Assembly: GCA_035517955.1 (NCBI GenBank)
Contig: DATIYC010000066.1
Span: forward strand, 1 to 58,690
From: Candidatus Acidiferrales bacterium
GTDB taxonomy: Archaea > Thermoproteota > Bathyarchaeia > 40CM-2-53-6
Reading direction: 5' to 3'
Length of the DNA stretch: 58,690 bases
How positions within the stretch are numbered: position 1 is the first letter of the stretch; each line of letters opens with the position of its first letter. A program made the position numbers and the translations under genes. The notes beneath the pieces are model-generated. The model saw nothing but the letters and a program-made list of their open reading frames with translations. It was not told where the DNA came from and searched no databases. This document shows positions 75-53,631 of the stretch, in pieces.

Positions 75-198
75 TGGTGCCGAGGGCGGGATTTGAATCC
101 GCGATTGGGCCTACGCGTAGTGAGTAGGCGTAGTCAACCCGGTCTTCAGCTTCACCCTTACGCGAGTCGGGTGCTCTCCCAGGCTGAGCTACCTCGGC
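75..198 (-). tRNA. tRNA-Phe(GAA), two non-canonical introns, CCA encoded
   Basis: The reverse complement reads GCCGAGG-TA-GCTC..GAGC...GCGGATTCAAATCCCGC-CCTCGGC-A-CCA with a 7-bp acceptor stem. Removing a 17-nt insert (+151-167) gives the anticodon arm CCCGG/CTGAAGA/CCGGG, with GAA at +145-147. A second insert of about 30 nt (+103-134) lies before the T arm. Confidence 0.72.
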
Positions 199-385: not shown

Positions 386-493
386 GGGCCGGTAGATCAG
401 CCTGGTATGAGCATCTTGAGCTGTCTATGATGCTATCACATCGTCCGCTTGGCATGCGGGAGGTCGCGGGTTCAAATCCCGCCCGGTCCACCA
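386..493 (+). tRNA. tRNA-Ala(GGC) with a 30-nt intron in the D arm, CCA encoded
   Basis: The acceptor stem is GGGCCGG/CCGGTCC with the G3:U70 alanine identity pair. The anticodon arm is TCCGC/TTGGCAT/GCGGG (GGC at 451-453) and the T arm is GCGGG/TTCAAAT/CCCGC. The D stem GATC/GATC forms only after removing 410-439, which contains the AGCATC/GATGCT hairpin. Confidence 0.85.
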
Positions 494-926
494 CTCCCAC
501 CAAAACCAAACTCTTCCGGCCCAGCCGTGAAGATTAGTTGCAATCAATTTGGAAACGTCGCGCCCAATAGTCTGTGCGTCGCTTAAAGGACGACCGAACT
601 ACTACAGTTGTCGTAATAGTTATGACCCGTTGATTATTTAGACTACGTGTTTATTAGTAGATACCAAAATAAGCGTAGTCACCAGAATTGGACGGTACCC
701 ACGTGAAGGACATGATACTAGAAACTTCACCCGATGAACTCGACTGTGCCAACAACAATGGTGAATTGGTTATGCTTTATGATTCAGCAATCAGGGCCAT
801 GCTCTCCTTTGGAGACTCCTCGAAATACGCCAAAAGCCTCCGCCCTATTCCTATTCGTAGACGGTTAGTAACTTGTGGCAAACTGCCTAGGCTGCAAGAA
901 AGTTGACGCATCAGAAGTGACACAAT

Positions 927-2164: not shown

Positions 2165-3400
2165 ATGTCGACCTCGATACAAAACCTCACCTTGCTCTCG
2201 GGCGGGGACTTTCAGATTATCCGAGACGGGTTCATCAGCATTGAAGATGGGAAGATTACAGAGTTTGGACAAGGGGTTCCGTCTCGCGACAAGCCTGTTG
2301 TTCTTGATGGAACCGGACTCGTGGCTATTCCAGGTTTGATAAACGCGCATGTTCACTTAGCCGATTCGATCGCGAAAGACATAGGAATTGGTTCGAGCCT
2401 CGACACCTTGGTCCATCCCATTCACGGCCTCAAGACAAAGGTTCTTCGAGAGGCGAGGATAGACGACATTTGTCAAGGAATGGCTCAGGCATCATGCACA
2501 ATGATCGCCTCAGGAATAACGACCTTCGCAGATTTTCGAGAAGGAGGGTTAGCCGGGGTCGAATTGGAGATAAAAGCGCTGAGCAAAAGTCGGCAGCGGC
2601 GCGTCATCCTTGGCCGACCCAATTATTACTTTGATCGAGACGAAGTAACCAATGAATCAAAACTATTTGCATCAAAAACAGTTGATGAATTACGCGAAAC
2701 CATCGACCTAGCTGACGGAGTGGGAGTCAGTGGCGCAAACGAATACACCACAAGCGCACTGAAACAGATCTCCGACCTATGCAAAAGAAGCGGCAAGCTT
2801 CTAGCAATTCACGTAGCCGAAAGCCCTGAGGCAACACAATTCTCAATCGAAAAATTCTCAACATCCGAAGTACACAGAGCAATGAACTTCCTCGAACCAG
2901 ACTTTGTGGTCCACCTTACCAATCCTAGTAAAGATGACCTAGACGAACTTTCCAAGAACCCGATTCCGGTCGTTTGTTGTCCAAGAGCTAATGCAATTCT
3001 TGGGTTAGGCACCCCTCCGCTCAAAGAGCTCCTCGAAAATGGTATCACTGTTGCGTTGGGCACGGACAATGTTATGTTGAATGCACCAGACATGTTTAGG
3101 GAAATGGACTACGCGTCTCGAGTCCTGAGGGCAGTGCATCGAGATGCTGGAGTGACGAGTTCAAAGGAAATTCTCAAGATGGCTACTTTGAACGGTGCGC
3201 AAGCACTTCGACTGGCCTCCAAGGTTGGCTCGATAGAGCAAGGGAAAGCGGCTGACATAGTGTTCCTTGACTTCCGATCCTCGAACTTAGCTTATTCCAA
3301 AGACACGATCGGATCAATCGTTCACAGAGCGAGCCGCGAGGATGTTAGGTGTGTGATGGTCGAGGGGGAGGTTGTGCACGGAAGCATTCCACGAGCGTAG
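2165..3400 (+). CDS. Metal-dependent amidohydrolase, COG0402 (guanine/cytosine/MTA-deaminase-like); substrate unassigned
   Basis: 411 aa. It carries HxH (NAHVHLAD), HxxE (AIHVAES), His (VVHLT) and Asp (LGTDN) deaminase-type motifs. It is embedded between arfA and arfC. Confidence 0.85.
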   Translation: MSTSIQNLTLLSGGDFQIIRDGFISIEDGKITEFGQGVPSRDKPVVLDGTGLVAIPGLINAHVHLADSIAKDIGIGSSLDTLVHPIHGLKTKVLREARIDDICQGMAQASCTMIASGITTFADFREGGLAGVELEIKALSKSRQRRVILGRPNYYFDRDEVTNESKLFASKTVDELRETIDLADGVGVSGANEYTTSALKQISDLCKRSGKLLAIHVAESPEATQFSIEKFSTSEVHRAMNFLEPDFVVHLTNPSKDDLDELSKNPIPVVCCPRANAILGLGTPPLKELLENGITVALGTDNVMLNAPDMFREMDYASRVLRAVHRDAGVTSSKEILKMATLNGAQALRLASKVGSIEQGKAADIVFLDFRSSNLAYSKDTIGSIVHRASREDVRCVMVEGEVVHGSIPRA

Positions 3401-4055
3401 GCATTCTCAGAGGCCGTATGTCATGATGAGCACAGCTATGACGCTAGATGGCAAAATAGGCACAGAATCAGGCGACTCCAGAATATCATCTCCCGCCGAC
3501 CTGAAACAGTTGCACGAGCTGCGATCTCATGTAGATGCTGTTATGATCGGAAGCGGTACGCTACTCAGCGATAACCCCCTCCTAACCGTCAGACGCGTTA
3601 AGGGCAGAAACCCGATAAGAATCATCGTCGATAGCACTGCCAAGACTCCGTCAAACTCCAAAGTCCTAACCGCTCAAGGAACAACAATCATCGCCGTATC
3701 GAACAAAGCTCCCAAACGACGAGTGAAAAAACTTCAGATGGCCGGCGCAAAGATAGTTCATTGCGGAACGAACCATGTCAACCTCAAAGCATTGATGTCA
3801 AGGCTACTCAGGATGGGAATTCGGACCGTTCTCCTGGAAGGCGGGGGAGGGCTGAATTGGCATATGCTAACAAACAACCTTGTCGATGAGTTGCGAATCA
3901 CCATCGCACCATTGCTGATTGGCGGAGAAGGCGCAAAGACATTGGTAGAGGGCACAGGAGTAGAAAAAATGAGCCAAGCGATCAAACTCACACTCAAGAG
4001 CACAACTCGAATCGAAAATGAATTGGTTCTAAGCTACAAGGTGAATGGATTGTGA
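3372..4055 (+). CDS. arfC: 2,5-diamino-6-ribosylamino-4(3H)-pyrimidinone 5'-phosphate reductase (RibD C-terminal domain only)
   Basis: 227 aa with RPYVMMSTAMTLDGKI..., NPIRIIVDS and LLEGGGGLN motifs. The TTG start at 3372 is the only canonical start that keeps the conserved PY motif. It overlaps the upstream ORF by 29 nt. Confidence 0.85.
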   Translation: MCTEAFHERRHSQRPYVMMSTAMTLDGKIGTESGDSRISSPADLKQLHELRSHVDAVMIGSGTLLSDNPLLTVRRVKGRNPIRIIVDSTAKTPSNSKVLTAQGTTIIAVSNKAPKRRVKKLQMAGAKIVHCGTNHVNLKALMSRLLRMGIRTVLLEGGGGLNWHMLTNNLVDELRITIAPLLIGGEGAKTLVEGTGVEKMSQAIKLTLKSTTRIENELVLSYKVNGL

Positions 4056-4789
4056 CTACTTGGACGGAACTAGAGGAATCTGTCAAAACCGGGAGAGTGA
4101 GCAAAGCCATACTTCCTATTGGAAGCTACGAGCAACACGGCCCCCATCTTCCCCTCTCCACGGACACCATGATAGCCGAATATGTCGCCAACAAGGTTTC
4201 CGAAAAGTGCGAAGCCTCATTCCTTCTTCCCAGCATACAGGTAGGCTGTTCAAGTGAGCACCTCGGTTTCGCAGGAACAATCTCCCTAACGCAAAAAACG
4301 ATGGCAGGTCTAATCGTCGACATTGCCCATAGTCTGACGCTCACAGGGTTCAGACGGCTCTTCATAATCAACGGCCACGGAGGAAACAAGGCCACAATAG
4401 ATTCCACGCTCATAGAAGTCAAACAACTCGTACCAGACTTGTCCATTTACTCATTCACAATCCTCGACATTGTGAAGCAAAAGTTCGACCACATAAGAAA
4501 ATCAGAACGAGGAGTTGTAGGTCACGCGGATGAAATTGAAACATCCATGATGCTTACCATTGCCCCAGACTGTGTGAACATGTCCCGCGCCGTATGCGAA
4601 AAATCATTGTTGCCCGAAAAGCTCTCTTTTGAGTCGAATAATATGACTAGAATTTCATTTGCTTGGAAAGCAAGCGAGGTTACAAAGTCAGGAGTGATCG
4701 GTGACCCCGCATCGGCAACAGCAGAGACAGGCACAATCCTACTCGATTTCGCGATTCAAGTAATCTCAGATATAATAAACGAATTATGA
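4052..4789 (+). CDS. arfB: Creatininase-fold formamide hydrolase (2-amino-5-formylamino-6-ribosylaminopyrimidinone 5'-P deformylase)
   Basis: 245 aa with LPIGSYEQHGPHLPL..D and INGHGGN creatininase family motifs. The GTG start overlaps the arfC stop by 4 nt. Confidence 0.82.
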   Translation: MTTWTELEESVKTGRVSKAILPIGSYEQHGPHLPLSTDTMIAEYVANKVSEKCEASFLLPSIQVGCSSEHLGFAGTISLTQKTMAGLIVDIAHSLTLTGFRRLFIINGHGGNKATIDSTLIEVKQLVPDLSIYSFTILDIVKQKFDHIRKSERGVVGHADEIETSMMLTIAPDCVNMSRAVCEKSLLPEKLSFESNNMTRISFAWKASEVTKSGVIGDPASATAETGTILLDFAIQVISDIINEL

Positions 4790-4801: not shown

Positions 4802-5443
4802 ATGTTTTCCGGAATTGTGGAACAACTGGCGCCTGTGATTTCCATTGAGAAATCACCTGGCCAAAGCGTCTCGATCAAAGTAGATCTTGGCCGTTTGGCT
4901 GACGAGACGCGTCGTGGAGACAGCGTGTGCATCAACGGAGTTTGTCTAACGGCTACGAATAAACAAGGAAGCGTAGTGTCATTTGACGCCATCGAAGAAA
5001 CATTACGCGTTACAAACCTTGGAACCCTTGTCGCGGGCAGTAAAGTGAACGTCGAACGAAGTCTCCGCCTAAACGACAGAGTCGCGGGACACTTTGTTAC
5101 AGGTCACATCGACAAAACTGGGACGATCTTTAGAGTGGAGAAGGAACAGGACGGGTCACTGAAGATGTTCATCAAAACGGAGCAGGACGTAATGATGCTG
5201 ATGACTCGAAAGGGCTCGGTTGCCGTGGATGGTATCAGCCTCACTGTCGTAGACGTTACCAAAGATGCGTTTTCGGTTTGCCTGATACCCACAACACTAT
5301 CGCTAACAACGCTAGGTTACAAGAGAGAAGGGGACATAGTCAATATCGAGGCAGATATGATAGGCAAGTACGTCATGCGCTACCTAAACGAGATTAGCCC
5401 ACGTGACCCTTCACGACAAAATCAATTGGTTTCAGCATCATAA
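4802..5443 (+). CDS. ribE: Riboflavin synthase, bacterial/eukaryotic alpha-chain type
   Basis: 213 aa. It starts MFSGIVE and has duplicated lumazine-binding halves (GDSVCINGVCLT / GSVAVDGISLTV), plus NVERS and GHFVTGHID. Confidence 0.9.
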   Translation: MFSGIVEQLAPVISIEKSPGQSVSIKVDLGRLADETRRGDSVCINGVCLTATNKQGSVVSFDAIEETLRVTNLGTLVAGSKVNVERSLRLNDRVAGHFVTGHIDKTGTIFRVEKEQDGSLKMFIKTEQDVMMLMTRKGSVAVDGISLTVVDVTKDAFSVCLIPTTLSLTTLGYKREGDIVNIEADMIGKYVMRYLNEISPRDPSRQNQLVSAS

Positions 5444-5455
5444 AAAAAACCAAAG

Positions 5456-6040
5456 TTGACAATTTTGACTGACGAAATAAGGCAAGTAATAGTTGCTATG
5501 TCAGGAGCAAGTGGATCAATCTACGGAGTACGGCTGATTAAAGCCCTCAAGAACGCCAACGTAACCGTACACCTCACCATATCACCCTCAGCGGAAATCA
5601 ACCTTGAACTTGAGACAGGATTAACAGCGAAAAAACTCTCAAAACTTGTCGACCACATGTACCCGGCAAACGATATGACCGCTCCCATCTCGAGCGGTTC
5701 CTTCTCCGTCCATGGAATGGTGATCGCCCCTTGTAGCATGAAAACACTAGCCGCGATCGCGAATGGTTACTCTGACAGCCTGACTACTCGTGCGGCTGAC
5801 GTGACGCTGAAGGAAGAACGAACTCTAGTTCTCGTTCCTAGAGAAACGCCGCTGAACCAGATTCACCTTAGAAACATGTTAACGGCCGCTCAGGCTGGTG
5901 CCATAATACTTCCCGCGAGCCCTGGCTTCTATCACTCACCCAAGACCATCGACGAACTCATCGACCACATAGTCGGCAAGATCATGGACATCTTACACAT
6001 CGAGCATAACCTCTACCGACGCTGGTCAGGGTTACCATAG
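5456..6040 (+). CDS. ubiX: Flavin prenyltransferase UbiX
   Basis: 194 aa with VAMSGASGSIYG, IAPCSMKTLAAIANGYSDSL..RAADV.LKE and LVPRETPL motifs. Confidence 0.9.
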   Translation: MTILTDEIRQVIVAMSGASGSIYGVRLIKALKNANVTVHLTISPSAEINLELETGLTAKKLSKLVDHMYPANDMTAPISSGSFSVHGMVIAPCSMKTLAAIANGYSDSLTTRAADVTLKEERTLVLVPRETPLNQIHLRNMLTAAQAGAIILPASPGFYHSPKTIDELIDHIVGKIMDILHIEHNLYRRWSGLP

Positions 6041-6168: not shown

Positions 6169-6975
6169 TTGCTCGCCGAAGACGGCATCGAAAAACAGCT
6201 ACTAGAGAATCTGGGCCTTACCCCGGGCGAATCTGGCATTTACATGAAACTTCTCCTTCAGCCTGAGGGCGAAATGGTCGACAAAGTAGTCACAGCGCTC
6301 GGAATCCCAAACGTTACTGCCGAGGCTGCACTAAGATCACTCACTGATAAGGGGCTAGTAAAAATTTCCAGCAACCGCGTAGAAGTCGTCCAACCAAGAA
6401 CAGCCATCCAGAGAATTCTGGACGACAGGAAAAGAACAATGGAAAATCAAATGTCTCAAGAATCCTCAATCGCGTTGCAGCTTGAGAAAGCGCTGGAACC
6501 GATTTACTGGGAGAAAAGGCTGGGCATTAGACCTGAGGAAGTCATCGAGCCCTTACGTGACTTGCCAGACATGGAATTGAGAACAGCCCGCATACTCGGA
6601 ACAGCATCTAAGGAAGTGTTCGTTTTCGCCGAAACGTTTGGGTGGTATGACCGGGTACGGGAATCCATCTTCCAAGCACACGACAGGCACGTCAACATGA
6701 GTATTCTAATGATGGTGAAAGATGATTACACAAAATCCCGGGCTAAGGAACTTCGAACACTCGGGATAAACGTGCGTCACTGCGCAGAGGAGTGGTACCC
6801 TGTTAGAGGAACTCTCGTCGACGACCAAGAATTGGTTTTCGTCATTTGGGCGACGAAGAAGAGCGCGGTCCCGCGTCCAACCTACTTCCGCCCAAATTAC
6901 ACAAGGAATCAAGGATTAATCAGAATCTTCCGAGACGCTTTCCTCAAGAGATGGGAAGAAGCTCAGGATATCTGA
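6169..6975 (+). CDS. TrmB-like transcriptional regulator (paralogue of 11001-11822)
   Basis: 268 aa. It has an N-terminal HTH-like segment. The C-terminal block WYPVRGTLVDDQELVFVIWA...NQGLIRIFRDAFLKRW is shared with the TrmB-like ORF at 11001-11822. Confidence 0.6.
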   Translation: MLAEDGIEKQLLENLGLTPGESGIYMKLLLQPEGEMVDKVVTALGIPNVTAEAALRSLTDKGLVKISSNRVEVVQPRTAIQRILDDRKRTMENQMSQESSIALQLEKALEPIYWEKRLGIRPEEVIEPLRDLPDMELRTARILGTASKEVFVFAETFGWYDRVRESIFQAHDRHVNMSILMMVKDDYTKSRAKELRTLGINVRHCAEEWYPVRGTLVDDQELVFVIWATKKSAVPRPTYFRPNYTRNQGLIRIFRDAFLKRWEEAQDI

Positions 6976-43828: not shown

Positions 43829-44039
43829 ACGAACCTGACCCGAAAAATACTATTTTCTATTCGCTTACTGGACAAGAAAGAAACGCGATAATGACTTAAC
43901 GAATCAGCAATCCACTCTCCAACCATACCAAAGGATTTCATACGCAAGGCCTCAGCATCAGCTACCATCGCATAGAATCATCAAGTTCAGGAACTGGGTA
44001 GTAACCCTATTAGGTTAAGCTAAGGTTCAACAATCGAAG

Positions 44040-45392
44040 TTGACGCTCATGGTTCAAACGGCTGAGCGAGAAGACGTTGTAAGTTTAACGAAGCAGCATA
44101 CGTACGGGACATGGCGGGCGCAAAAAAGTTGGATTCCTCGAGAGGTTGTGAGTGCAGAAGGATGCTACTTCAAGGACGCTTCGGGTCAAGAATTCCTGGA
44201 TTTCTCGTCACAATTAATGTGCTCGAATCTGGGCCACGGTAACAAAGCGGTTATTGACGCAATATGTGAACAAGCTAGGAAGCTTCCCTACGCTGCCCCA
44301 GGCTTCACAACTGAAGCACGAGCGAAACTCACGGCAGCATTGGCAGAGGTCATGCCACATGGTTTGGAGAAATTTTTCTATGCTACGTCAGGAACTGAAG
44401 CAAATGAAGCTGCATTCAAAATTGCTAGGCAATTCACAGGCAAGTACAAAATAATCTCAAGATATGCATCATACCATGGCTCAACGGCGGGTTCGATAGC
44501 TGCTACCGGCGACCCTCGCCGATATCCAATTGAACCTTCAGGAAAAATGGAAGGTGTTCTATTCGGACCTGACGCATACTGCTATCGCTGTCCATTCGGA
44601 TTGAAGTATCCCGACTGTGGTATTGCATGCGCAGACTACTTGGAATACATGATTAAGCATGAATCCAACGTCGCAGCCGTCATCGTAGAACCTGTTGTAG
44701 GCACGAACGGCGTCATTGTCCCGCCTGACGAGTACTTGCCGCGTCTTCGTGAAGTCACCGAGGAAAACGATGTCTTACTGATCTGTGACGAAGTCATGTC
44801 TGGCTGGGGACGAACTGGTGAATGGTTCGCGGTTAATCATTGGAAAGTCAAGCCTGATATCCTAACGACCGCAAAGGGTGTCACTGGGGCGTATGTTCCG
44901 CTGAGTGTTACCGCAACAACTCGCAACATCTCTGACTATTTCGAGGAACATTACTTTGCTCACGGTCATACGTATGAAGCTCATCCAATGACTCTCGCGC
45001 CGGGAATTGCTGCGATTAGTGAGTACAAGCGATTGAACCTCATCGAGAGGGCACGAACAATGGGACAATATACGGGGAAGAAACTTACGGCTCTCCAAGA
45101 GAAGCATCCGTCGGTTGGAGATGTACGCGGAATAGGCTTATTCTGGTCACTAGAGCTTGTAAGAAACAGGAACAATAAAACGCCCTTCAACACCGGCGAG
45201 GAGAAACTTCAAGGTAAACCAATGGTCTCGGACGGGGTTGCCGCAGAATGCATGAAGAATGGCACTTACGTAATGTCGTGGCTCAATTACATGATAATTG
45301 CTCCACCATTGATAGTCACGCCCGAAGAGATCGACAAAGGCGTTGCCGCCCTTGACAAAGGACTGACGGTCGCTGACAAAGAAGTCGTCTAA
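44040..45392 (+). CDS. Class III (omega-type) aminotransferase
   Basis: 450 aa with SGTEANE, CDEVMSGWGRTG and TTAKG (PLP lysine). Confidence 0.85.
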   Translation: MTLMVQTAEREDVVSLTKQHTYGTWRAQKSWIPREVVSAEGCYFKDASGQEFLDFSSQLMCSNLGHGNKAVIDAICEQARKLPYAAPGFTTEARAKLTAALAEVMPHGLEKFFYATSGTEANEAAFKIARQFTGKYKIISRYASYHGSTAGSIAATGDPRRYPIEPSGKMEGVLFGPDAYCYRCPFGLKYPDCGIACADYLEYMIKHESNVAAVIVEPVVGTNGVIVPPDEYLPRLREVTEENDVLLICDEVMSGWGRTGEWFAVNHWKVKPDILTTAKGVTGAYVPLSVTATTRNISDYFEEHYFAHGHTYEAHPMTLAPGIAAISEYKRLNLIERARTMGQYTGKKLTALQEKHPSVGDVRGIGLFWSLELVRNRNNKTPFNTGEEKLQGKPMVSDGVAAECMKNGTYVMSWLNYMIIAPPLIVTPEEIDKGVAALDKGLTVADKEVV

Positions 45393-45422: not shown

Positions 45423-46814
45423 TCAAGTGTAACTCCACTTAGACTTGACGCTGATCCCAGCTCTTTCAAGTAGCCTCGCAGCTCTTGCGTTAGCCTCCTG
45501 TATGATCGCACTTTCGTTAAGTGTCCTTATCTGACCGCGCGCCATCAGAATTTTCCCATCCACAATTACCGTATCAACGTCAGAGCCCTCACCAGAATAG
45601 ACGAGGTGAGAAATTGGATTCAGGGTCGGTGTCAGGTGCGGACTATCTAACCGAACTATAGCCAAATCAGCCTTCTTCCCGACCTCTAGAGAACCAATTT
45701 CATTATCCAATCCTAACGCCTTGGCTCCGTTAATTGTCGCCAACTCAAGTACGTCTTCCGCGCTCATGACAATGGGATCGTATAATCTCACTTTTTGAAT
45801 CAGTGATGCGAGTTTCATTTCACGGATCATATCATAGCAGTTGTTACTTGGACCCCCATCGCAACCTAGGCCAACGTTTACGCCATGCTTGATCATTTCA
45901 GGTACGGGTGCAATCCCAGAAGCTAATTTCGTGTTGGAGGATGGGCAGTGGGCCACTGTTGCGCCCTTTGCGGCTAGTATTTTCCACTCCTTTTCAGCCA
46001 ACCAGACTCCATGCGCGAAGACAACCTTCGGTCCCATCACCCCTACTTGATCCATGAACTCAGCAGGCAGTTTCGCGAACTCCTTGTTTGCGTATTTTAC
46101 GTCCTCTTGGACTTCGCCGAGATGCATCGTGATACCGATTTTGAGTCGTTTGGCACCCTCCGCGATTCGGCTGTACAGTTCGGGTGTACACGCTCCTAGT
46201 GAACGAGCCCCATACCATACCTGTACCCGTCCACCCGCTTTACCATTCCAACGATTGTAGTAGGTCTCGACTTCGCGAAGGCATGTTTCCGCATCCTCGA
46301 TCATGCCCCTGTGCATGATGCTCTTCTCCGTTCCATAGCTAGGCATGCCCATCACAGTCTTTGAAAGAATTCCGCGCATTCCTGACCGTTCAACAGCCTT
46401 CGCGATTCCATCGAACCCATAGCGCGTGTGCAGGAGGCTTTCTAGGAAAGTGGTTGTCCCAGATTTGATCATCTCTAGCATGCACAATTCAGCGCTCACT
46501 CTTCCGTCCTGCGCGTCGAAATTTCCTTGGAGTGGCCAAACGAATTTCTGAAGCCAATCAATCAATGAGGTGTCATCCGCGCAGCCGCGGATTAGGGCTT
46601 GAGCGAGGTGAACATGAGTATCAATCAGCCCTGGTAGCACAATCTTCCCGGTGGCATCAATTTCGAATTCTGCACGACTTCTAGGCCTTACCTCATCTAC
46701 CTTTCCGATTAGCGATATGCCGCTGTCTTCTATGAGAATGGCGCCATCTCGAATTACTCGTCGATGGGCATCCATAGTGATTATGGTTCCGCCCTTTATG
46801 AGAACTGTCGACAT
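45423..46814 (-). CDS. COG0402 amidohydrolase/deaminase (MTA/SAH-, guanine- or SsnA-like)
   Basis: 463 aa with PGLIDTHVHLAQ, TMHLGE, FAHGVW and LGCDG. Confidence 0.85.
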   Translation of the reverse strand: MSTVLIKGGTIITMDAHRRVIRDGAILIEDSGISLIGKVDEVRPRSRAEFEIDATGKIVLPGLIDTHVHLAQALIRGCADDTSLIDWLQKFVWPLQGNFDAQDGRVSAELCMLEMIKSGTTTFLESLLHTRYGFDGIAKAVERSGMRGILSKTVMGMPSYGTEKSIMHRGMIEDAETCLREVETYYNRWNGKAGGRVQVWYGARSLGACTPELYSRIAEGAKRLKIGITMHLGEVQEDVKYANKEFAKLPAEFMDQVGVMGPKVVFAHGVWLAEKEWKILAAKGATVAHCPSSNTKLASGIAPVPEMIKHGVNVGLGCDGGPSNNCYDMIREMKLASLIQKVRLYDPIVMSAEDVLELATINGAKALGLDNEIGSLEVGKKADLAIVRLDSPHLTPTLNPISHLVYSGEGSDVDTVIVDGKILMARGQIRTLNESAIIQEANARAARLLERAGISVKSKWSYT

Positions 46815-46917
46815 CTGAACCAGTTGACCTTGGACTTCAACCCTCTACTTACCCTTATTGAGTCGACGTCCGGAGATCGAGGTCACAGCGAATGCACAGG
46901 ACCTTGATTTCGATTGG

Positions 46918-47502
46918 CTAAGACCTTCGATCGTTTTCTTTTCGAAAGTCTTCAAGAGCTCTGTTCAAGGTTACAACTGCTCCCTTTTGTAAATGTTCAA
47001 TTGCAGCCAGCGCGGCTCGATGAGCGTCTTTACTTGTTCCAGCAACGCAGTCCTCAAGAACCTTGACCCTAAAATCGAATTGATGCGCATCCATAGCAGT
47101 AAGGTAGACACAGACGTCAGTTGCCGCACCCGTAATATAGAGCGTGTCTACGTTCAAACCACTCAGAAGTACTTGCAGGTCGGTTCCAAAGAAGCCACTA
47201 TAACGCCTCTTCGTTACCACATAATCCAAATCAGTTGGCACTAATTCTTCGACTATCCTCGCTCCAATGCTACCCTCGACGCAATGAAGTGGCTCATCGC
47301 CATCCAACTCTCTACCGAAGTCTACCTTCTGAGCCCTATGCACTTCCTGAGTAAATATGCACGGAATGCCCGCATCGTGCGCTTCCGCGATTAATTGCCG
47401 GATTTTCGGCACAATTTGTGTTGCTCCCTCGCATGGGACTGGTCCGGAGGGGTCAACGAAGTCATGTTGCATGTCAATTATCAATAATGCCGGTCTACTC
47501 AT
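46918..47502 (-). CDS. Isochorismatase-family cysteine hydrolase (amidase type)
   Basis: The D-K-C triad context is ALLIIDMQHDF, VVTKRRYSGF and TGAATDVCV. The start is taken at MSRPALLIID; the track ORF extends to 47619. Confidence 0.78.
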   Translation of the reverse strand: MSRPALLIIDMQHDFVDPSGPVPCEGATQIVPKIRQLIAEAHDAGIPCIFTQEVHRAQKVDFGRELDGDEPLHCVEGSIGARIVEELVPTDLDYVVTKRRYSGFFGTDLQVLLSGLNVDTLYITGAATDVCVYLTAMDAHQFDFRVKVLEDCVAGTSKDAHRAALAAIEHLQKGAVVTLNRALEDFRKENDRRS

Positions 47503-47706
47503 GTTAAGGCGCCCTGGTTTCAAAAGTATACCTTTGCTAGGATTCGATCGGCCACCTAAATGAAACTTTGACGAACCATAAAATCGAAGAAGATTACGAT
47601 GAATTTTAGCTTGGCACAATGCGTATCGTTTTTTACCTGTGTATTTACCTTGGGCGACCGGAACATGCGAAAGTGTTAAATTCGAAATCTGCGTCGCCCC
47701 TAAGTT

Positions 47707-49248
47707 ATGACAAGCGAACCGACGGCTTTTGTTAGGAAGGCTTCAGGTCTCCGAAGAGACGTTTCGTTACTGGATGTAGTTAGTCTAAACCTCAGCAACA
47801 TGTCCGGAGGAGCAGCTCTCGGAACCATCGGATTCACTACAGTGCTTCTCACGTCGATGTCTGGGGTGAACTTGGTATACGGTTCGATACTCGCATGGTT
47901 CCTAACGATTCCGGAAGTCGTTGTTTATACTATGATGACGTCTCGAGTGAGTCGGACTGGAGGAGATTACGTGTGGGTTTCGAGAGTCTATGGCGGAGCA
48001 TTCGGTGGACCCCTCTCGTTCATGGGATACACAATCGAGACTATGGCCTACATGGCACTCATCGCCTTAGCCGCGGTAACGGCAATCGGATCCGTTGGGG
48101 TGTCGCTTGGTTACTCTAACATGCTCCAGTTCGCGCTGCCCGGAAACCTTCCCGGCGCCAACTTGGCTGGCCAATTCGCTATAGCAGCCATCATTTTCGT
48201 CGTACTTATCGCTGCTAACATGCTCAAACCAAAACTGGGCTTCAAGATCGTTGCAATCGCAGTGCTGATTGCAATAGTTGCAACGTTTGTTGGAATCTTC
48301 TCTCTCCTGGCCGCCGGGACCAACGGCGTACAAGGGTACATGAGTTTCCTTAACTCGATCGGAGACAACACAACGTATACTGCAGTCGCAAACTCTTACA
48401 CCGGCCCAACGTTCGACTTTGGTGCAACTATCTTTATGCTGCCCTTCTTTGCCATCTTCGTTTATCCATGGCTAAATGCCGGCCCTGCAGTGGCCTCCGA
48501 AATCAAAGGTAAGTCCGCACTCAAGTATAACGTGGCAATCTCATCCGTCGTAAGCCTCATAATCGTAACATCGGCATTCGCGGCCATGTACTACGCCGGG
48601 GGTTTCAACTTCATCAATGGCGCATTATCCAACCCGGGCCTCGTATACGACTGGTCCTTCAACTTCTGGACCCTGGCGATGGGAGTTTCCAGCACACCTG
48701 TAGCTTGGTTCATTGGATTAGGGTGGATATTATGGAACGTCGCTGTCATTGCCTATGCGATCATCGTCCTATCTCGCTATCTCTTCGCCCAATCATTCGA
48801 CCGCTTCTTGCCGGAAAAAATCTCCTACGTCAGCAAATATGGCTCACCCACGGTAGCGTTTACGATTAACCTAGTCTGCACCTTGGTGCTAATTGCGCTC
48901 GCGTCATTCTTCTATGGAACCCTAGTGTCCCTATACGGAGCCGTCATTGCCTCAATGATTTACTTCTTCTTCATCGGAATAGCGGCCGTACGCTACGCAA
49001 TCAAGAACGAGAAAGGAACCTCAAAGGGCATCTTGGCTACGGCTGGCCTCCTAATGACGATCGTCTTCGCGTATATAACATACCAATTCATCGCATACTA
49101 TACAATCTGGGGAGGAACATTGCTTGGGACAGGATGGGCTGTTGGCAGCTTCATTGTTGGAGTTGCAATTTACTTCATCTCGAAATCGTACTACGGCAAA
49201 CGCGGAATCGATATAACTCTGGCGTACAAAGAACTACCACCCCTATAA
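47707..49248 (+). CDS. APC-superfamily permease
   Basis: 513 aa with about 12 or more hydrophobic helices. The N-terminal pattern is typical of amino acid/polyamine/organocation transporters. Confidence 0.75.
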   Translation: MTSEPTAFVRKASGLRRDVSLLDVVSLNLSNMSGGAALGTIGFTTVLLTSMSGVNLVYGSILAWFLTIPEVVVYTMMTSRVSRTGGDYVWVSRVYGGAFGGPLSFMGYTIETMAYMALIALAAVTAIGSVGVSLGYSNMLQFALPGNLPGANLAGQFAIAAIIFVVLIAANMLKPKLGFKIVAIAVLIAIVATFVGIFSLLAAGTNGVQGYMSFLNSIGDNTTYTAVANSYTGPTFDFGATIFMLPFFAIFVYPWLNAGPAVASEIKGKSALKYNVAISSVVSLIIVTSAFAAMYYAGGFNFINGALSNPGLVYDWSFNFWTLAMGVSSTPVAWFIGLGWILWNVAVIAYAIIVLSRYLFAQSFDRFLPEKISYVSKYGSPTVAFTINLVCTLVLIALASFFYGTLVSLYGAVIASMIYFFFIGIAAVRYAIKNEKGTSKGILATAGLLMTIVFAYITYQFIAYYTIWGGTLLGTGWAVGSFIVGVAIYFISKSYYGKRGIDITLAYKELPPL

Positions 49249-50374: not shown

Positions 50375-50627
50375 ACTTTCGTAATTTATCCGTGGTAATA
50401 GGAGTTATCCTTCCCAAGACACTGAGTGCAGAGTTATTCAATTCATAGAAAATGTTCACCTGGGCGATGAACAAAAGTCGGAAGAGGCACGGAAGACTAC
50501 CTGAGACACCAGTAATCCTATTTGTAATACCGAAGACTCTACTGCATGTTTAGTCCCAAAAAAAGTAACTAGATTGCACTCAAACCATGATGACTAAACG
50601 AAATCACAATTCGAGAGATTTGAAGAG

Positions 50628-52424
50628 TTGTTCGAATTCGATGGTCGAAGACCACTGCACGAAATGACACGGACACTCGTAGATACTGCGATGGGACGAA
50701 GCAAGGCAGATTTGGTGGTTCAAAACGCATCGATTGTAAACGTAAACTCCGGCGAAATACTAGAGAATGTGAACATAGCCACTAAAGAAGACAGAATCGC
50801 ACTGATTGGAAACGTCAAGCACACGATTGGTCCAAACACCGAAGTGGTTGACGTGAAAGGAAAATACGTAAGCCCAGGATTCATCGACGGACACTGCCAC
50901 GTCGAGAGTGCACTCGTCACCGGAACTGGATATGCGAAAGCGGTCCTACCACATGGAACAACCACCGTATTTATCGACCCTCACGAAATCACTAACGTCC
51001 TCGGATTGGAGGGCGTAAGGTTCTTCCTTGACGAAGCACGCGCCCTTCCTCTCAAAATGCTGGTCACATTTCCTTCCTGCGTCCCCGCGGCACCCGGCTT
51101 CGAAACTAGTGGTGCTTCGATTGGGCCAAGTGAGGTTGCTGAGGCAATGAGCTGGAAGGGGATCGTAGCGCTAGGTGAAGTGATGAACTATCCCGGCGTA
51201 CTCGCCTCCGACGCTAATGTACACGGCGAGATTGCTGCCACCCTCAGGCATGGAAGGGTTGTTGAAGGACATGCAGTCGACTTATTGGATCGAGACTTGG
51301 CTGCATACGCCGCTGCTGGAATCACATCATGCCACGAATCGACAAAGGCAATTCAAGCCATGCAGAAAATCAGAGATGGAATGTATGCAATGTTGAGGGA
51401 AGCATCTGGTGCACGAAATGTTGCCGAAACAATACGAGCGATTACCATTGAGAAACTTAACCCGCGTCATGTCTGTCTGGTCACCGATGACCGTGAGCCT
51501 GGCGACCTCCTACGCGAAGGGCACATTGACCATGCCATCCGTAGAGCTATCCAGGAAGGCGTGGACCCAATCGTAGCAATACAAATGGCAACCCTGAATA
51601 CCGCGGAACATTTTGAATGTGCAAGAGAGATCGGCAGTATAGCCCCTGCCCGGTTCGCCGATATGGTTATCCTGAATAAACTTGAAACAATCGATATAGA
51701 TTCAGTCATTGCAAACGGAAGATTCGTTAGCCATCACGGCAGACTTACAAACGAAATAGCGTACCCCAAGTTCCCTGAACGGGCAAGGAATTCCGTCCAC
51801 CTCAAACACTCCCCGGCCAGTGACGATTTGATCATCAAGACGAAAACGAGAGACGGCTCGGTCAGAGCACGAGTCATCGGAGTTCTGCCTACCGAGATCT
51901 CCACACGGAATCTCGAACTTGAGGTCCCTGTGAAAAATGGACAGGCATTAGCTAATGCTAATGAAGATATTGCAAAAATAGCAGTCTTTGAGCGCCACTC
52001 AGCTACCGGTAACGTTGCTGCCGGTTTCATAAAAGGACTCGGACTCAAGCGTGGAGCTGTGGCTTCGACCGTTGGACATGACAGCCACAACCTTGTCGCA
52101 GCAGGCATGGAAGACAAAGACATTACCGCTGCTGCCAACGCACTCGCGCGTATTGGAGGAGGCATGGTAGTTGTGAAAGATCAGAGAACTATCGCAATTG
52201 TTCCTCTACCCATTGCCGGACTAATGTCGGACAAGCCCGTTGAAACAGTCTCAGCAGAGATCGACCAATTGAAGAAGGCATGGTCAGACCTGGGCTCAAC
52301 TCTTCCCTCACCGTACATGACTCTTGCCTTCACAACGCTCTCCGTGATCCCTGAACTCAGAATCACCGACAAAGGAGTGCTGGATACGGTTCAATTCAAG
52401 TTCGTGAATCCAATCATAGAGTAA
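50628..52424 (+). CDS. ade: Adenine deaminase (amidohydrolase superfamily, long form)
   Basis: 598 aa with SPGFIDGHCHVES, GHA, TDD and HDSHN motifs and the C-terminal adenine deaminase domain. Confidence 0.82.
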   Translation: MFEFDGRRPLHEMTRTLVDTAMGRSKADLVVQNASIVNVNSGEILENVNIATKEDRIALIGNVKHTIGPNTEVVDVKGKYVSPGFIDGHCHVESALVTGTGYAKAVLPHGTTTVFIDPHEITNVLGLEGVRFFLDEARALPLKMLVTFPSCVPAAPGFETSGASIGPSEVAEAMSWKGIVALGEVMNYPGVLASDANVHGEIAATLRHGRVVEGHAVDLLDRDLAAYAAAGITSCHESTKAIQAMQKIRDGMYAMLREASGARNVAETIRAITIEKLNPRHVCLVTDDREPGDLLREGHIDHAIRRAIQEGVDPIVAIQMATLNTAEHFECAREIGSIAPARFADMVILNKLETIDIDSVIANGRFVSHHGRLTNEIAYPKFPERARNSVHLKHSPASDDLIIKTKTRDGSVRARVIGVLPTEISTRNLELEVPVKNGQALANANEDIAKIAVFERHSATGNVAAGFIKGLGLKRGAVASTVGHDSHNLVAAGMEDKDITAAANALARIGGGMVVVKDQRTIAIVPLPIAGLMSDKPVETVSAEIDQLKKAWSDLGSTLPSPYMTLAFTTLSVIPELRITDKGVLDTVQFKFVNPIIE

Positions 52425-52445: not shown

Positions 52446-53477
52446 CTAGCTAGAGGCATTGAAAGCGTTGATCATGGCGTGCACATCGTCAGCCAAAGGG
52501 TAGAGCACTGGACACGTGCAACCAGTGGCAGTGTATTCGCCAATTTTCTTAAGACAATCTTCGGCTGTTCCACTCGCCGAGATTAGGCGCACCAGTTTGT
52601 CGTCAACGAGTGCTTTTGCCTTCTCTAGACCACCAGGTTTTGCAGGCCACCCTCCAAGCGCTGTTTTGACCTCCTCGATTAAGGACTCCTTCACTCCGCT
52701 CGCTTTCGCGATGTGAGGCTGTTGCCCTAGGTACTGAGCGATTAGTGGACGAGCGCTGTCAAGTGCCTTGTCCGCATCGTCATCGAGTGAGCATACAACC
52801 AGCTGTGGTCTGTCGATGTCCTCCAACTTTCGACCTTCTTCCTTGGCGCCCTCTTTGAGGTATTCCAGTGCTTTTCGGTTATAGTCTGGAGAGACCAAGT
52901 AGTTCAGGAGGAGCCCGTCGGCCAACTCACCCGTCATCCTAATCATGTCCCAGCCTGTTGCGCCAATGTAGATTGGGATGTGGCGTGGGGTTGAGGGATC
53001 ACCATAAACCACATCAAGCCTGATGTCCCTCACGTTCACAAACTCACCCTCGTATGTCACGTTCTCCATTCGGAATAATCGTTGAAGAACGGTCACGTAT
53101 TCACGCATAGCCTTGAGAGGTTTCTTTCGATCGATCCCAACCTTCCAAGCAAGTGGATCCCACCAGGCACCTATGCCAAGCAATGCTCGACCTTCGGATA
53201 GCTCATCTAGCGTTAGAAAAGATGCCGCCGTTAACCCGACATTGCGGGTCCAATTGTTTATGACTCCTGTGCCAAGTTTGATCTTCTTCGTTACTGCCGA
53301 GATTGCAGCTAGGGGTATGAGTGCGTCACGCGCAAGGCGCGATTCTGCGTGCCAAATAGCTTCGAATCCCTTTTGTTCAGCGTACTGGCAAAGCTCCATC
53401 TCTTCCTTTACCCGATGCTTATCCTGAAGGTAGAGGGCGACACGTTTCATGGGAGCATTGTGGGAAGGCTTAGACAA
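52446..53477 (-). CDS. Luciferase-like monooxygenase (LLM) class, F420-dependent-type oxidoreductase
   Basis: 343 aa with the TIM-barrel LLM pattern (FEAIWHAE, KLGTGV.N...RN). It is divergent from the XDH operon. Confidence 0.78.
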   Translation of the reverse strand: MSKPSHNAPMKRVALYLQDKHRVKEEMELCQYAEQKGFEAIWHAESRLARDALIPLAAISAVTKKIKLGTGVINNWTRNVGLTAASFLTLDELSEGRALLGIGAWWDPLAWKVGIDRKKPLKAMREYVTVLQRLFRMENVTYEGEFVNVRDIRLDVVYGDPSTPRHIPIYIGATGWDMIRMTGELADGLLLNYLVSPDYNRKALEYLKEGAKEEGRKLEDIDRPQLVVCSLDDDADKALDSARPLIAQYLGQQPHIAKASGVKESLIEEVKTALGGWPAKPGGLEKAKALVDDKLVRLISASGTAEDCLKKIGEYTATGCTCPVLYPLADDVHAMINAFNASS

Positions 53478-53631
53478 TAGTATTGCGCAGACAAGTAATC
53501 ATTGAGTTCAATCAACGAGAAGCAACGCAACCTGAAGAATGCGGTTCGTGAGAGTACCTGGTGAATGGTTAAGAGTGACGCGTTTAAGCTCCCGTAAAGC
53601 TTACCAAACTTTGCTTGTAGGAGTAGTTGCG

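Follow-up and report, generated by a model that had tools for sequence, protein, structure and literature searches.

To our knowledge, two steps of the archaeal route to riboflavin and F0/F420, the deamination of the 2-amino group and the dephosphorylation, lack an experimentally assigned enzyme, and in lineages such as haloarchaea the deformylase ArfB, too, is known to us only as a predicted candidate. Orthologues of RibD's deaminase domain seem to be absent from Archaea, and clustering and co-occurrence with riboflavin genes led Rodionova et al (2017; PMC5397151) to propose a candidate archaeal pyrimidine deaminase, "PyrD", which is found in 15 RbkR regulons. In the words of these authors, their prediction "remains to be tested"; they cited Osterman, Overbeek and Rodionov (2010), where the candidate appears under the SEED role "Pyrimidine deaminase archaeal predicted". 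Both SEED and Rodionova et al (2017; PMC5397151) assign it EC 3.5.4.26. More recently, HVO_2483 and MJ0699, which are 34% identical to each other, were named as the candidate, and experimental confirmation was called for (Pfeiffer and Dyall-Smith, 2021; PMC8305020). Here, we analysed a contig of 58,690 nucleotides from an archaeal assembly (DATIYC010000066.1; hereafter, the window) that carries an open reading frame (ORF) at positions 2165-3400 of the forward strand, referred to as X, within a riboflavin operon. We consider it likely that X is the pyrimidine deaminase of the archaeal riboflavin/F420 pathway, a mononuclear-metal TIM-barrel amidohydrolase of the COG0402 group. The initial annotation had put X forward as the missing 2-amino deaminase, and this proposal withstood each of the tests named against it that could be run. 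Its implied novelty did not, as the candidate had already been proposed with the same argument by Osterman et al (2010) and Rodionova et al (2017; PMC5397151), and what we describe is a rediscovery of a standing prediction.

X encodes a protein of 411 aa, with an ATG start and a TAG stop, and belongs to a same-strand unit with the order ribH-arfA-X-arfC-arfB-like-ribE-ubiX (Table 1), whose junctions measure 0, +8, -29, -4, +12, and +12 nt. The gene order of the initial annotation was therefore recovered, with the addition of ubiX, which had been overlooked. The spacing was recovered as well, since X begins 8 nt after arfA, whose stop ends at 2156, and the GTG start of the arfB-like gene at 4052 lies 4 nt over the arfC stop. 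The reported 29-nt overlap between X and arfC holds with a TTG at 3372 as the arfC start. This TTG is the sole in-frame start upstream of a conserved N-terminal RPYV segment, and a GAGGGGGAGG run is found immediately 5' of it. Profile matches begin at residue 15 (Pfam RibD_C) and residue 13 (TIGR00227) of the resulting protein, and alignments to orthologues at residues 4-17, mostly 12-14. Taken together, these data indicate that the overlap is real. An ATG at 3423, which would abolish it, was also considered as the arfC start and rejected, because the conserved RPYV segment lies upstream of it. Given that their coding regions overlap, X and ArfC are probably made together, and they might work as a co-translated pair, conceivably in a complex.

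X matches PF01979 (Amidohydro_1) over residues 54-404 with 179.5 bits (cut-off 25), and with 366.2 bits it exceeds the curated cut-off of 294 of the NCBIfam equivalog NF005552 (PRK07213), named "chlorohydrolase". The latter match is end to end, residues 5-399 of X corresponding to profile positions 4-377 of 382. All four deaminase motifs quoted in the initial annotation are present: NAHVHLAD (H62-V-H64), AIHVAES (H216-V-A-E219), VVHLT (H250), and LGTDN (D301). When 35 members of the family, drawn from Nitrososphaerota, Bathyarchaeia, methanogens, and haloarchaea, were aligned, H62, H64, H216, E219, H250, and D301 proved invariant (35/35), and in X they are located at the ends of predicted strands, with HxH after strand 1, HxxE after strand 5, the His after strand 6, and the Asp after strand 8. 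An AlphaFold model of X, built on 15 orthologues, predicts with confidence (predicted local distance difference test, pLDDT, 91; predicted template-modelling score, pTM, 0.92) a (beta/alpha)8 barrel with a small beta-sandwich domain. When this model was compared with solved structures using Foldseek, it aligned to COG0402 members, including 4gbd, 3ls9, 7ww2, and 6ohb, with TM scores of 0.8-0.86. As both guanine deaminases and Vcz (7ww2), a deaminase of isocytosine (2-amino-4-pyrimidinone), are among these matches, the fold is one known to remove the same amino group from the same ring system.

Beyond the catalytic set, D67, S68, K90, F124, R125, E126, G128, S189, R274, N302, V303, M304, and R388 are conserved in at least 34 of the 35 members. 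Most of these residues lie on the active-site face, where predicted barrel strands reach their C-terminal ends, or shortly beyond; K90, which falls in a flexible lid, and R388, which belongs to the C-terminal domain, are exceptions. The signature includes a family-specific DFREGG motif, in which F124, R125, E126, and G128 are kept in 34/35 members. A second COG0402 protein encoded in the window, whose best NCBIfam match is 5'-deoxyadenosine deaminase (DadD; 444 bits, below the cut-off of 522) and which carries an HxHxxQ motif, differs at all of the signature positions, which in order read Q, A, a gap, S-L-L-x-T (at F124 to G128), R, S, G-G-P, and S.

Conservation of gene neighborhood was assessed in one genome per species, at 28 archaeal loci with clear orthologues of X (accepted at an E-value of at most 1e-49, or as partial copies where the contig ends) and 52 bacterial loci whose COG0402 homologues are more distant. 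Loci spanned up to 15 kb, and the RibH, ArfA, ArfC, ArfB-like, and RibE proteins of the window served as queries for the flanks. Riboflavin genes flank X in 21 of the 28 archaeal loci, but in none of the 52 bacterial ones (0/52). The linkage spans several archaeal phyla and supports the association with riboflavin genes that the initial annotation had seen in one operon. Loci of Nitrososphaera, Nitrosopumilus, Nitrosotalea, and Bathyarchaeota mostly show the order ribH-arfA-X-arfC, with X and arfC often abutting or overlapping. Those of Methanosarcinaceae have X-Usp-CBS-arfC, where Usp is a universal stress protein gene, and in a Methanotrichaceae locus arfC is divergent from X. In the closest relative with a long contig (L087, 73% identity), the order is ribB-ribH-arfA-X-arfC-creatininase-ribE. 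CofH uses 5-amino-6-ribitylaminouracil, the precursor common to riboflavin and F0. In one uncultured archaeon (L022, 390-7813), X is part of an arfC-cofG-cofH-X cluster, divergent from ribE-arfA-ribH-ribB, an arrangement that, given the substrate of CofH, points specifically to the branch-point precursor made with the help of the missing deaminase; this copy of X scores below the NF005552 cut-off (244 versus 294 bits).

Another feature of these loci is that in Euryarchaeota (L016, L017, L018, L024, and the Haloferax loci L019 and L081) a universal stress protein gene regularly follows X. In methanogens, a gene for a protein with four CBS domains (HhpR-like) comes after X-Usp, and in Methanosarcinaceae arfC then follows.

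The relationship to the previously named haloarchaeal candidate was examined through a Haloferax protein (P0128) that shares 35% identity with X along its entire length and scores 205 bits to X versus 53 bits to the DadD-like paralogue. The Haloferax orthologue, of 337 aa, is annotated as "amidohydrolase domain protein", and in H. gibbonsii the order is cofD, an 86-aa ORF, a 200-aa ORF, HD, HD, X, Usp, BirA, biotin carboxylase, and asd. The two outer genes of this stretch are HVO_2479 (cofD) and HVO_2487 (asd) in H. volcanii. Counting back from asd, X corresponds to HVO_2483; a forward count that starts at cofD gives the same locus only if no number was assigned to the 86-aa ORF. Since X is the sole deaminase-like gene of the cofD-asd interval, the Haloferax orthologue maps by synteny to HVO_2483.

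As the first alternative, X might catalyze another hydrolytic step of the pathway, either the deformylation of the ArfA product (the role of ArfB) or a metabolite-repair deamination of a related or side-product pyrimidine. Enzymes of the amidohydrolase superfamily can hydrolyze amides, and most thaumarchaeal operons, with the order ribH-arfA-X-arfC, have no arfB-like gene in their flanks. In addition, the window gene called an ArfB-type deformylase in the initial annotation belongs to the creatininase family (PF02633) and sits in the expected operon position, but it matches the curated ArfB model NF033501 with only 41.9 bits (cut-off 180). The same gene reaches 144 bits with the model of the mycofactocin peptidase MftE and 125 bits with the creatininase model, and stays below the cut-off on all three. 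Its ArfB label thus reflects family and context, and its conserved position after arfC, here as well as in L087 and in another locus (L001), suggests a divergent ArfB outside the reach of the curated model. In the window, L087, and L001, the operon includes X as well as a creatininase-family gene, which covers both roles. Moreover, HxxE, His, and Asp with a single metal site mark the deaminase/dehalogenase group of the superfamily and not its amide hydrolases, and if X acted elsewhere the deaminase step would stay unfilled. We therefore regard a role in another step as improbable, although X may have one in lineages with no arfB-like gene nearby.

A second alternative, to which we give still less credit, is that X deaminates purines or nucleosides in general, with 5'-deoxyadenosine, methylthioadenosine/S-adenosylhomocysteine (MTA/SAH), adenosine, or guanine as its substrate, and is found in the riboflavin operon of this lineage by chance. 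The best PDB matches of X are AtzA, MTA/adenosine deaminases, TrzN, an 8-oxoguanine/isocytosine deaminase, and guanine deaminases, the MTA/SAH and adenosine deaminases among the closest structures being 4f0r, 4dyk/4gbd, and TM0936; public annotations of the X family read "cytosine/adenosine deaminase-related hydrolase" or "chlorohydrolase". However, identity to every solved structure is at most 25%, and X falls far under the curated cut-offs of the DadD (NF005557; 142 bits, cut-off 522), MTA/SAH deaminase (MtaD, NF012037; 89.5 bits, cut-off 779), and guanine deaminase (TIGR02967; 92 bits, cut-off 375.4) families. A separate protein, the DadD-like paralogue, is much closer to the characterized enzymes, scoring 185-241 bits to PDB entries versus 55-119 bits for X. 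The two proteins are 27% identical, and every orthologue tested scored 197-345 bits to X versus 48-105 bits to the paralogue. An adenine deaminase is also encoded in the window. Residues were compared with 4f0r, 4dyk, 3lnp, and the paralogue. The Glu of the "WPxEG" segment of the MTA/SAH deaminase 4f0r aligns to a variable position of X, where it is replaced by H87. We take this Glu to be the ribose-hydroxyl binder described for TM0936, but give the point little weight, as we do our assumptions about Glu84 of TM0936 and the Gln of the guanine-deaminase HxHxxQ motif, for which a literature search gave nothing usable. The residues conserved on the active-site face of the X family differ from those of the DadD-like paralogue; the initial annotation had seen in a shared MTA/SAH or 5'-deoxyadenosine deaminase pocket a reason to abandon its proposal. 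Finally, the synteny with riboflavin genes is kept across phyla and absent from the bacterial homologues.

With X as the pathway deaminase, the substrate would be 2,5-diamino-6-ribitylamino-4(3H)-pyrimidinone 5'-phosphate, whose 2-amino group would be hydrolyzed to give 5-amino-6-ribitylamino-2,4(1H,3H)-pyrimidinedione 5'-phosphate and ammonia. This product of the ArfC reductase is the most likely substrate because reduction precedes deamination in M. jannaschii (PMC5397151) and ArfC is of the archaeal reductase type. As stated in the initial annotation, the RibD homologue is reductase-only, a protein with RibD_C alone that passes the archaeal reductase equivalog TIGR01508. That X carries out the same step on another form of the substrate, be it the not yet reduced ribosyl compound, as in the bacterial order (EC 3.5.4.26 proper), or the dephosphorylated compound, is the least probable of the alternatives: the EC number given in SEED and by Rodionova et al (2017; PMC5397151) would favor it, and the order of the two steps is not fixed by sequence, but the order in M. 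jannaschii opposes it, TIGR01508 is named for the diamino-ribosylamino substrate, and the invariant basic residues K90, R125, R274, and R388 would suit a phosphorylated substrate.

A mechanism can be proposed by analogy with deaminases that share this fold and act on guanine, isocytosine, or adenosine. H62, H64, H216, and D301 would hold one metal and a bound water; E219 of the HxxE motif would protonate the ring nitrogen next to C2, and H250 and D301 would take the proton from the attacking water or hydroxide. Hydroxide would then add to C2, and the tetrahedral intermediate would collapse with the departure of ammonia. The residues invariant only in this family, D67, S68, K90, R125, E126, S189, R274, and N302, may recognize the pyrimidinone ring and the ribityl 5'-phosphate. 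X, MJ0699, and HVO_2483 together probably represent the true archaeal diaminopyrimidinone-phosphate deaminase, with D67, K90, R125, E126, R274, and N302 as the family-specific residues that would recognize the ribityl-phosphate substrate.

Several observations weigh against this assignment. Seven of the 28 orthologue loci have no riboflavin gene within ~7 kb; they belong to Haloferax, Salinigranum, Halodesulfurarchaeum, and Chewarchaeum (haloarchaeal), Methanobrevibacter, Methanocellales, and one uncultured archaeon, and in them Usp and CBS genes come after X. The thaumarchaeal RbkR operator has the consensus TTAC-N10-GTAA (PMC5397151), and no RbkR-type operator was found upstream of the operon, nor any exact match to this consensus in the window. 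Allowing one mismatch, there are 17 sites in the window versus 14.5 expected, and the sole upstream one (599-616) is at chance level; between 494 and 930 there is no convincing palindrome. With regard to a deaminase of the cytidine deaminase (CDA) fold, X has no PF00383 match in a Pfam search, and the CDA zinc signature [HC]AE...PCxxC is absent from the six-frame ORFs of at least 60 aa. This bears out, over the 58.7-kb window, the claim that the operon has no RibD/Rib2-type deaminase domain, but such an enzyme may be encoded elsewhere in the genome. The pocket residues are assigned from sequence position and predicted secondary structure. Lastly, in agreement with the initial annotation, which regarded the archaeal deamination step as having no firmly assigned enzyme, we found no experimental characterization, either enzymatic or genetic, of the candidate in the searchable literature up to 2026, including a mechanistic riboflavin review of that year, and a preprint on random-barcode transposon sequencing (RB-TnSeq) in M. 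maripaludis does not mention the gene.

The remaining features of the window are collected in Table 1. At the head of the operon, what may be a remnant of the ribB N-terminus, a weak call supported mainly by position, is found where L087 has an intact ribB (L087 6029-6748). It appears that ribB was lost from the operon head here, and it must lie elsewhere if the organism makes riboflavin. In L087, the ribH call is split into two pieces, one of 74 and one of 65 aa (L087 6771-7236), probably owing to a frameshift or an assembly error. At the other end of the operon, ubiX encodes a consumer of flavin mononucleotide; it is without counterpart at that position in L087, which points to a recent addition to the operon. 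A gene for a TrmB-family helix-turn-helix protein comes after the operon on the same strand, and likewise in L087 (11375-12181); its product might regulate the operon or the sugar-nucleotide genes that lie downstream.

Upstream of the operon there are two intron-containing tRNA genes. The first has an Rfam tRNA match of 38.7 bits; the second shows only a partial match to the tmRNA model and has an encoded CCA end. ARAGORN finds neither with default settings and both when introns are allowed, with odd structures and unreliable identities (Val-CAC and His-ATG). The region 342-493, comprising the second tRNA gene and an upstream "CTTTTA" box, is 90% identical to L087, compared with ~72% for the flanking genes. 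This conserved stretch of 152 nt was considered as a regulatory RNA of the operon and rejected, as it corresponds to the intron-containing tRNA gene and its promoter.

Elsewhere in the window, the DadD-like paralogue adjoins genes for an isochorismatase-family hydrolase, a class-III aminotransferase, and the adenine deaminase, and may belong with them to a salvage or catabolic cluster for purines, pyrimidines, or triazine-like compounds. An F420-dependent oxidoreductase of the LLM class (Mer-like, below cut-off) is encoded in the window as well. The organism probably uses F420 and would therefore need 5-amino-6-ribitylaminouracil for F0 besides riboflavin.

Table 1. Operon genes, sequence motifs of X, and other features of the window
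Feature	Position	Strand	Evidence or remarks
tRNA gene, intron-containing	75-198	-	
tRNA gene, intron-containing	386-493	+	
Putative ribB N-terminus remnant, ~29 codons (weak)	718..795	+	tblastn 52% identity over 29 aa, E = 0.13
ribH, 6,7-dimethyl-8-ribityllumazine synthase, 154 aa	927..1391	+	PF00885 116.5 bits; TIGR00114 123.5 bits, cut-off 84.6
arfA, GTP cyclohydrolase III, 254 aa	1392..2156	+	PF05165 GCH_III 259 bits
X, amidohydrolase-superfamily (COG0402-type) deaminase, candidate 2,5-diamino-6-ribitylamino-4(3H)-pyrimidinone 5'-phosphate deaminase	2165..3400	+	PF01979, NF005552/PRK07213, AlphaFold, synteny
HxH metal-binding motif of X, H62-V-H64	2348..2356	+	Invariant 35/35
Family-invariant D67-S68 of X, just after HxH	2363-2368	+	Family alignment
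DFREGG motif of X, D123-G128, family-specific, contains invariant R125	2531..2548	+	C-terminal end of barrel strand; predicted strand 118-125
HxxE motif of X, H216-V-A-E219, putative metal ligand and proton-shuttle Glu typical of superfamily deaminases	2810..2821	+	
H250 of X, putative catalytic His after barrel strand 6	2912..2914	+	
GTDNVM segment of X, putative metal-ligand/catalytic D301 and family-specific N302-V303-M304	3059..3076	+	
arfC, archaeal-type pyrimidine reductase, 227 aa, RibD_C only	3372..4055	+	TIGR01508 223.5 bits, cut-off 186.45; PF01872
Creatininase-family hydrolase, 245 aa, candidate ArfB formamide hydrolase, GTG start	4052..4789	+	PF02633 226 bits
ribE, riboflavin synthase, trimeric (bacterial/eukaryotic) type	4802..5443	+	TIGR00187 202 bits; PF00677
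ubiX, flavin prenyltransferase	5456..6040	+	TIGR00421 249 bits
TrmB-family helix-turn-helix protein	6169-6975	+	
Cluster around the DadD-like paralogue (paralogue at 45426-46844)	45426-46844 (-), 46921-47742 (-), 44019-45389 (+), 50598-52421 (+)		
F420-dependent LLM-class oxidoreductase	52449-53498	-	Mer-like, below cut-off

If the proposed function is true, the deaminase gap of the archaeal riboflavin/F420 pathway would be closed, and the pathway would offer a clear case of non-homologous enzyme replacement, with a TIM-barrel amidohydrolase in place of the cytidine-deaminase fold. It would then be possible to correct the labels "chlorohydrolase" and "amidohydrolase family protein" on thousands of genes in archaeal genomes, including those of ammonia oxidizers and methanogens. 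Both the candidate and the reasoning behind it entered SEED in ~2010 and the literature in 2017, so that only proof would be new. To these, our analysis adds a synteny count that is independent and includes a negative control, the arfC-cofG-cofH-X cluster, a residue signature that is specific to the family and defined against a paralogue of the same genome fragment, and a confident structural model.

Compared with the systems described so far, X belongs to the same protein family as PyrD (Rodionova et al, 2017; PMC5397151) and was singled out by the same rationale, namely clustering or co-occurrence with riboflavin genes and the lack of a RibD deaminase domain. It comes from an uncultured Nitrososphaerota/Bathyarchaeia-like archaeon and, at 411 aa, is longer than the haloarchaeal proteins of 337 aa, in which ~25 residues behind strand 3 are missing, as is a segment behind HxxE; otherwise, nothing essential differs. 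The name "chlorohydrolase" of NF005552 is a historical homology label that does not reflect the riboflavin context of X. The N-terminal domain of RibD and fungal Rib2 (CDA fold, PF00383) catalyze the pathway step equivalent to the one proposed for X, and Rib2 would act on the same substrate, the ribityl form after reduction. However, their fold and zinc site (H/C-A-E ... P-C-x-x-C) are unrelated to X, which, if its function is confirmed, is an analogous, non-homologous replacement of the RibD/Rib2 domain. With the solved COG0402 enzymes, such as the MTA/SAH deaminases (TM0936, 4f0r), guanine deaminases (2uz9, 6ohb), Vcz (7ww2), AtzA, and TrzN, X has in common the fold and the HxH/HxxE/His/Asp set, and the guanine and isocytosine deaminases among them attack the same 2-amino-4-oxo-pyrimidine chemistry as proposed for X. 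From all of them it is set apart by its low identity, by scores below the cut-offs of the DadD, MTA/SAH, and guanine deaminase families, and by invariant residues of its own.

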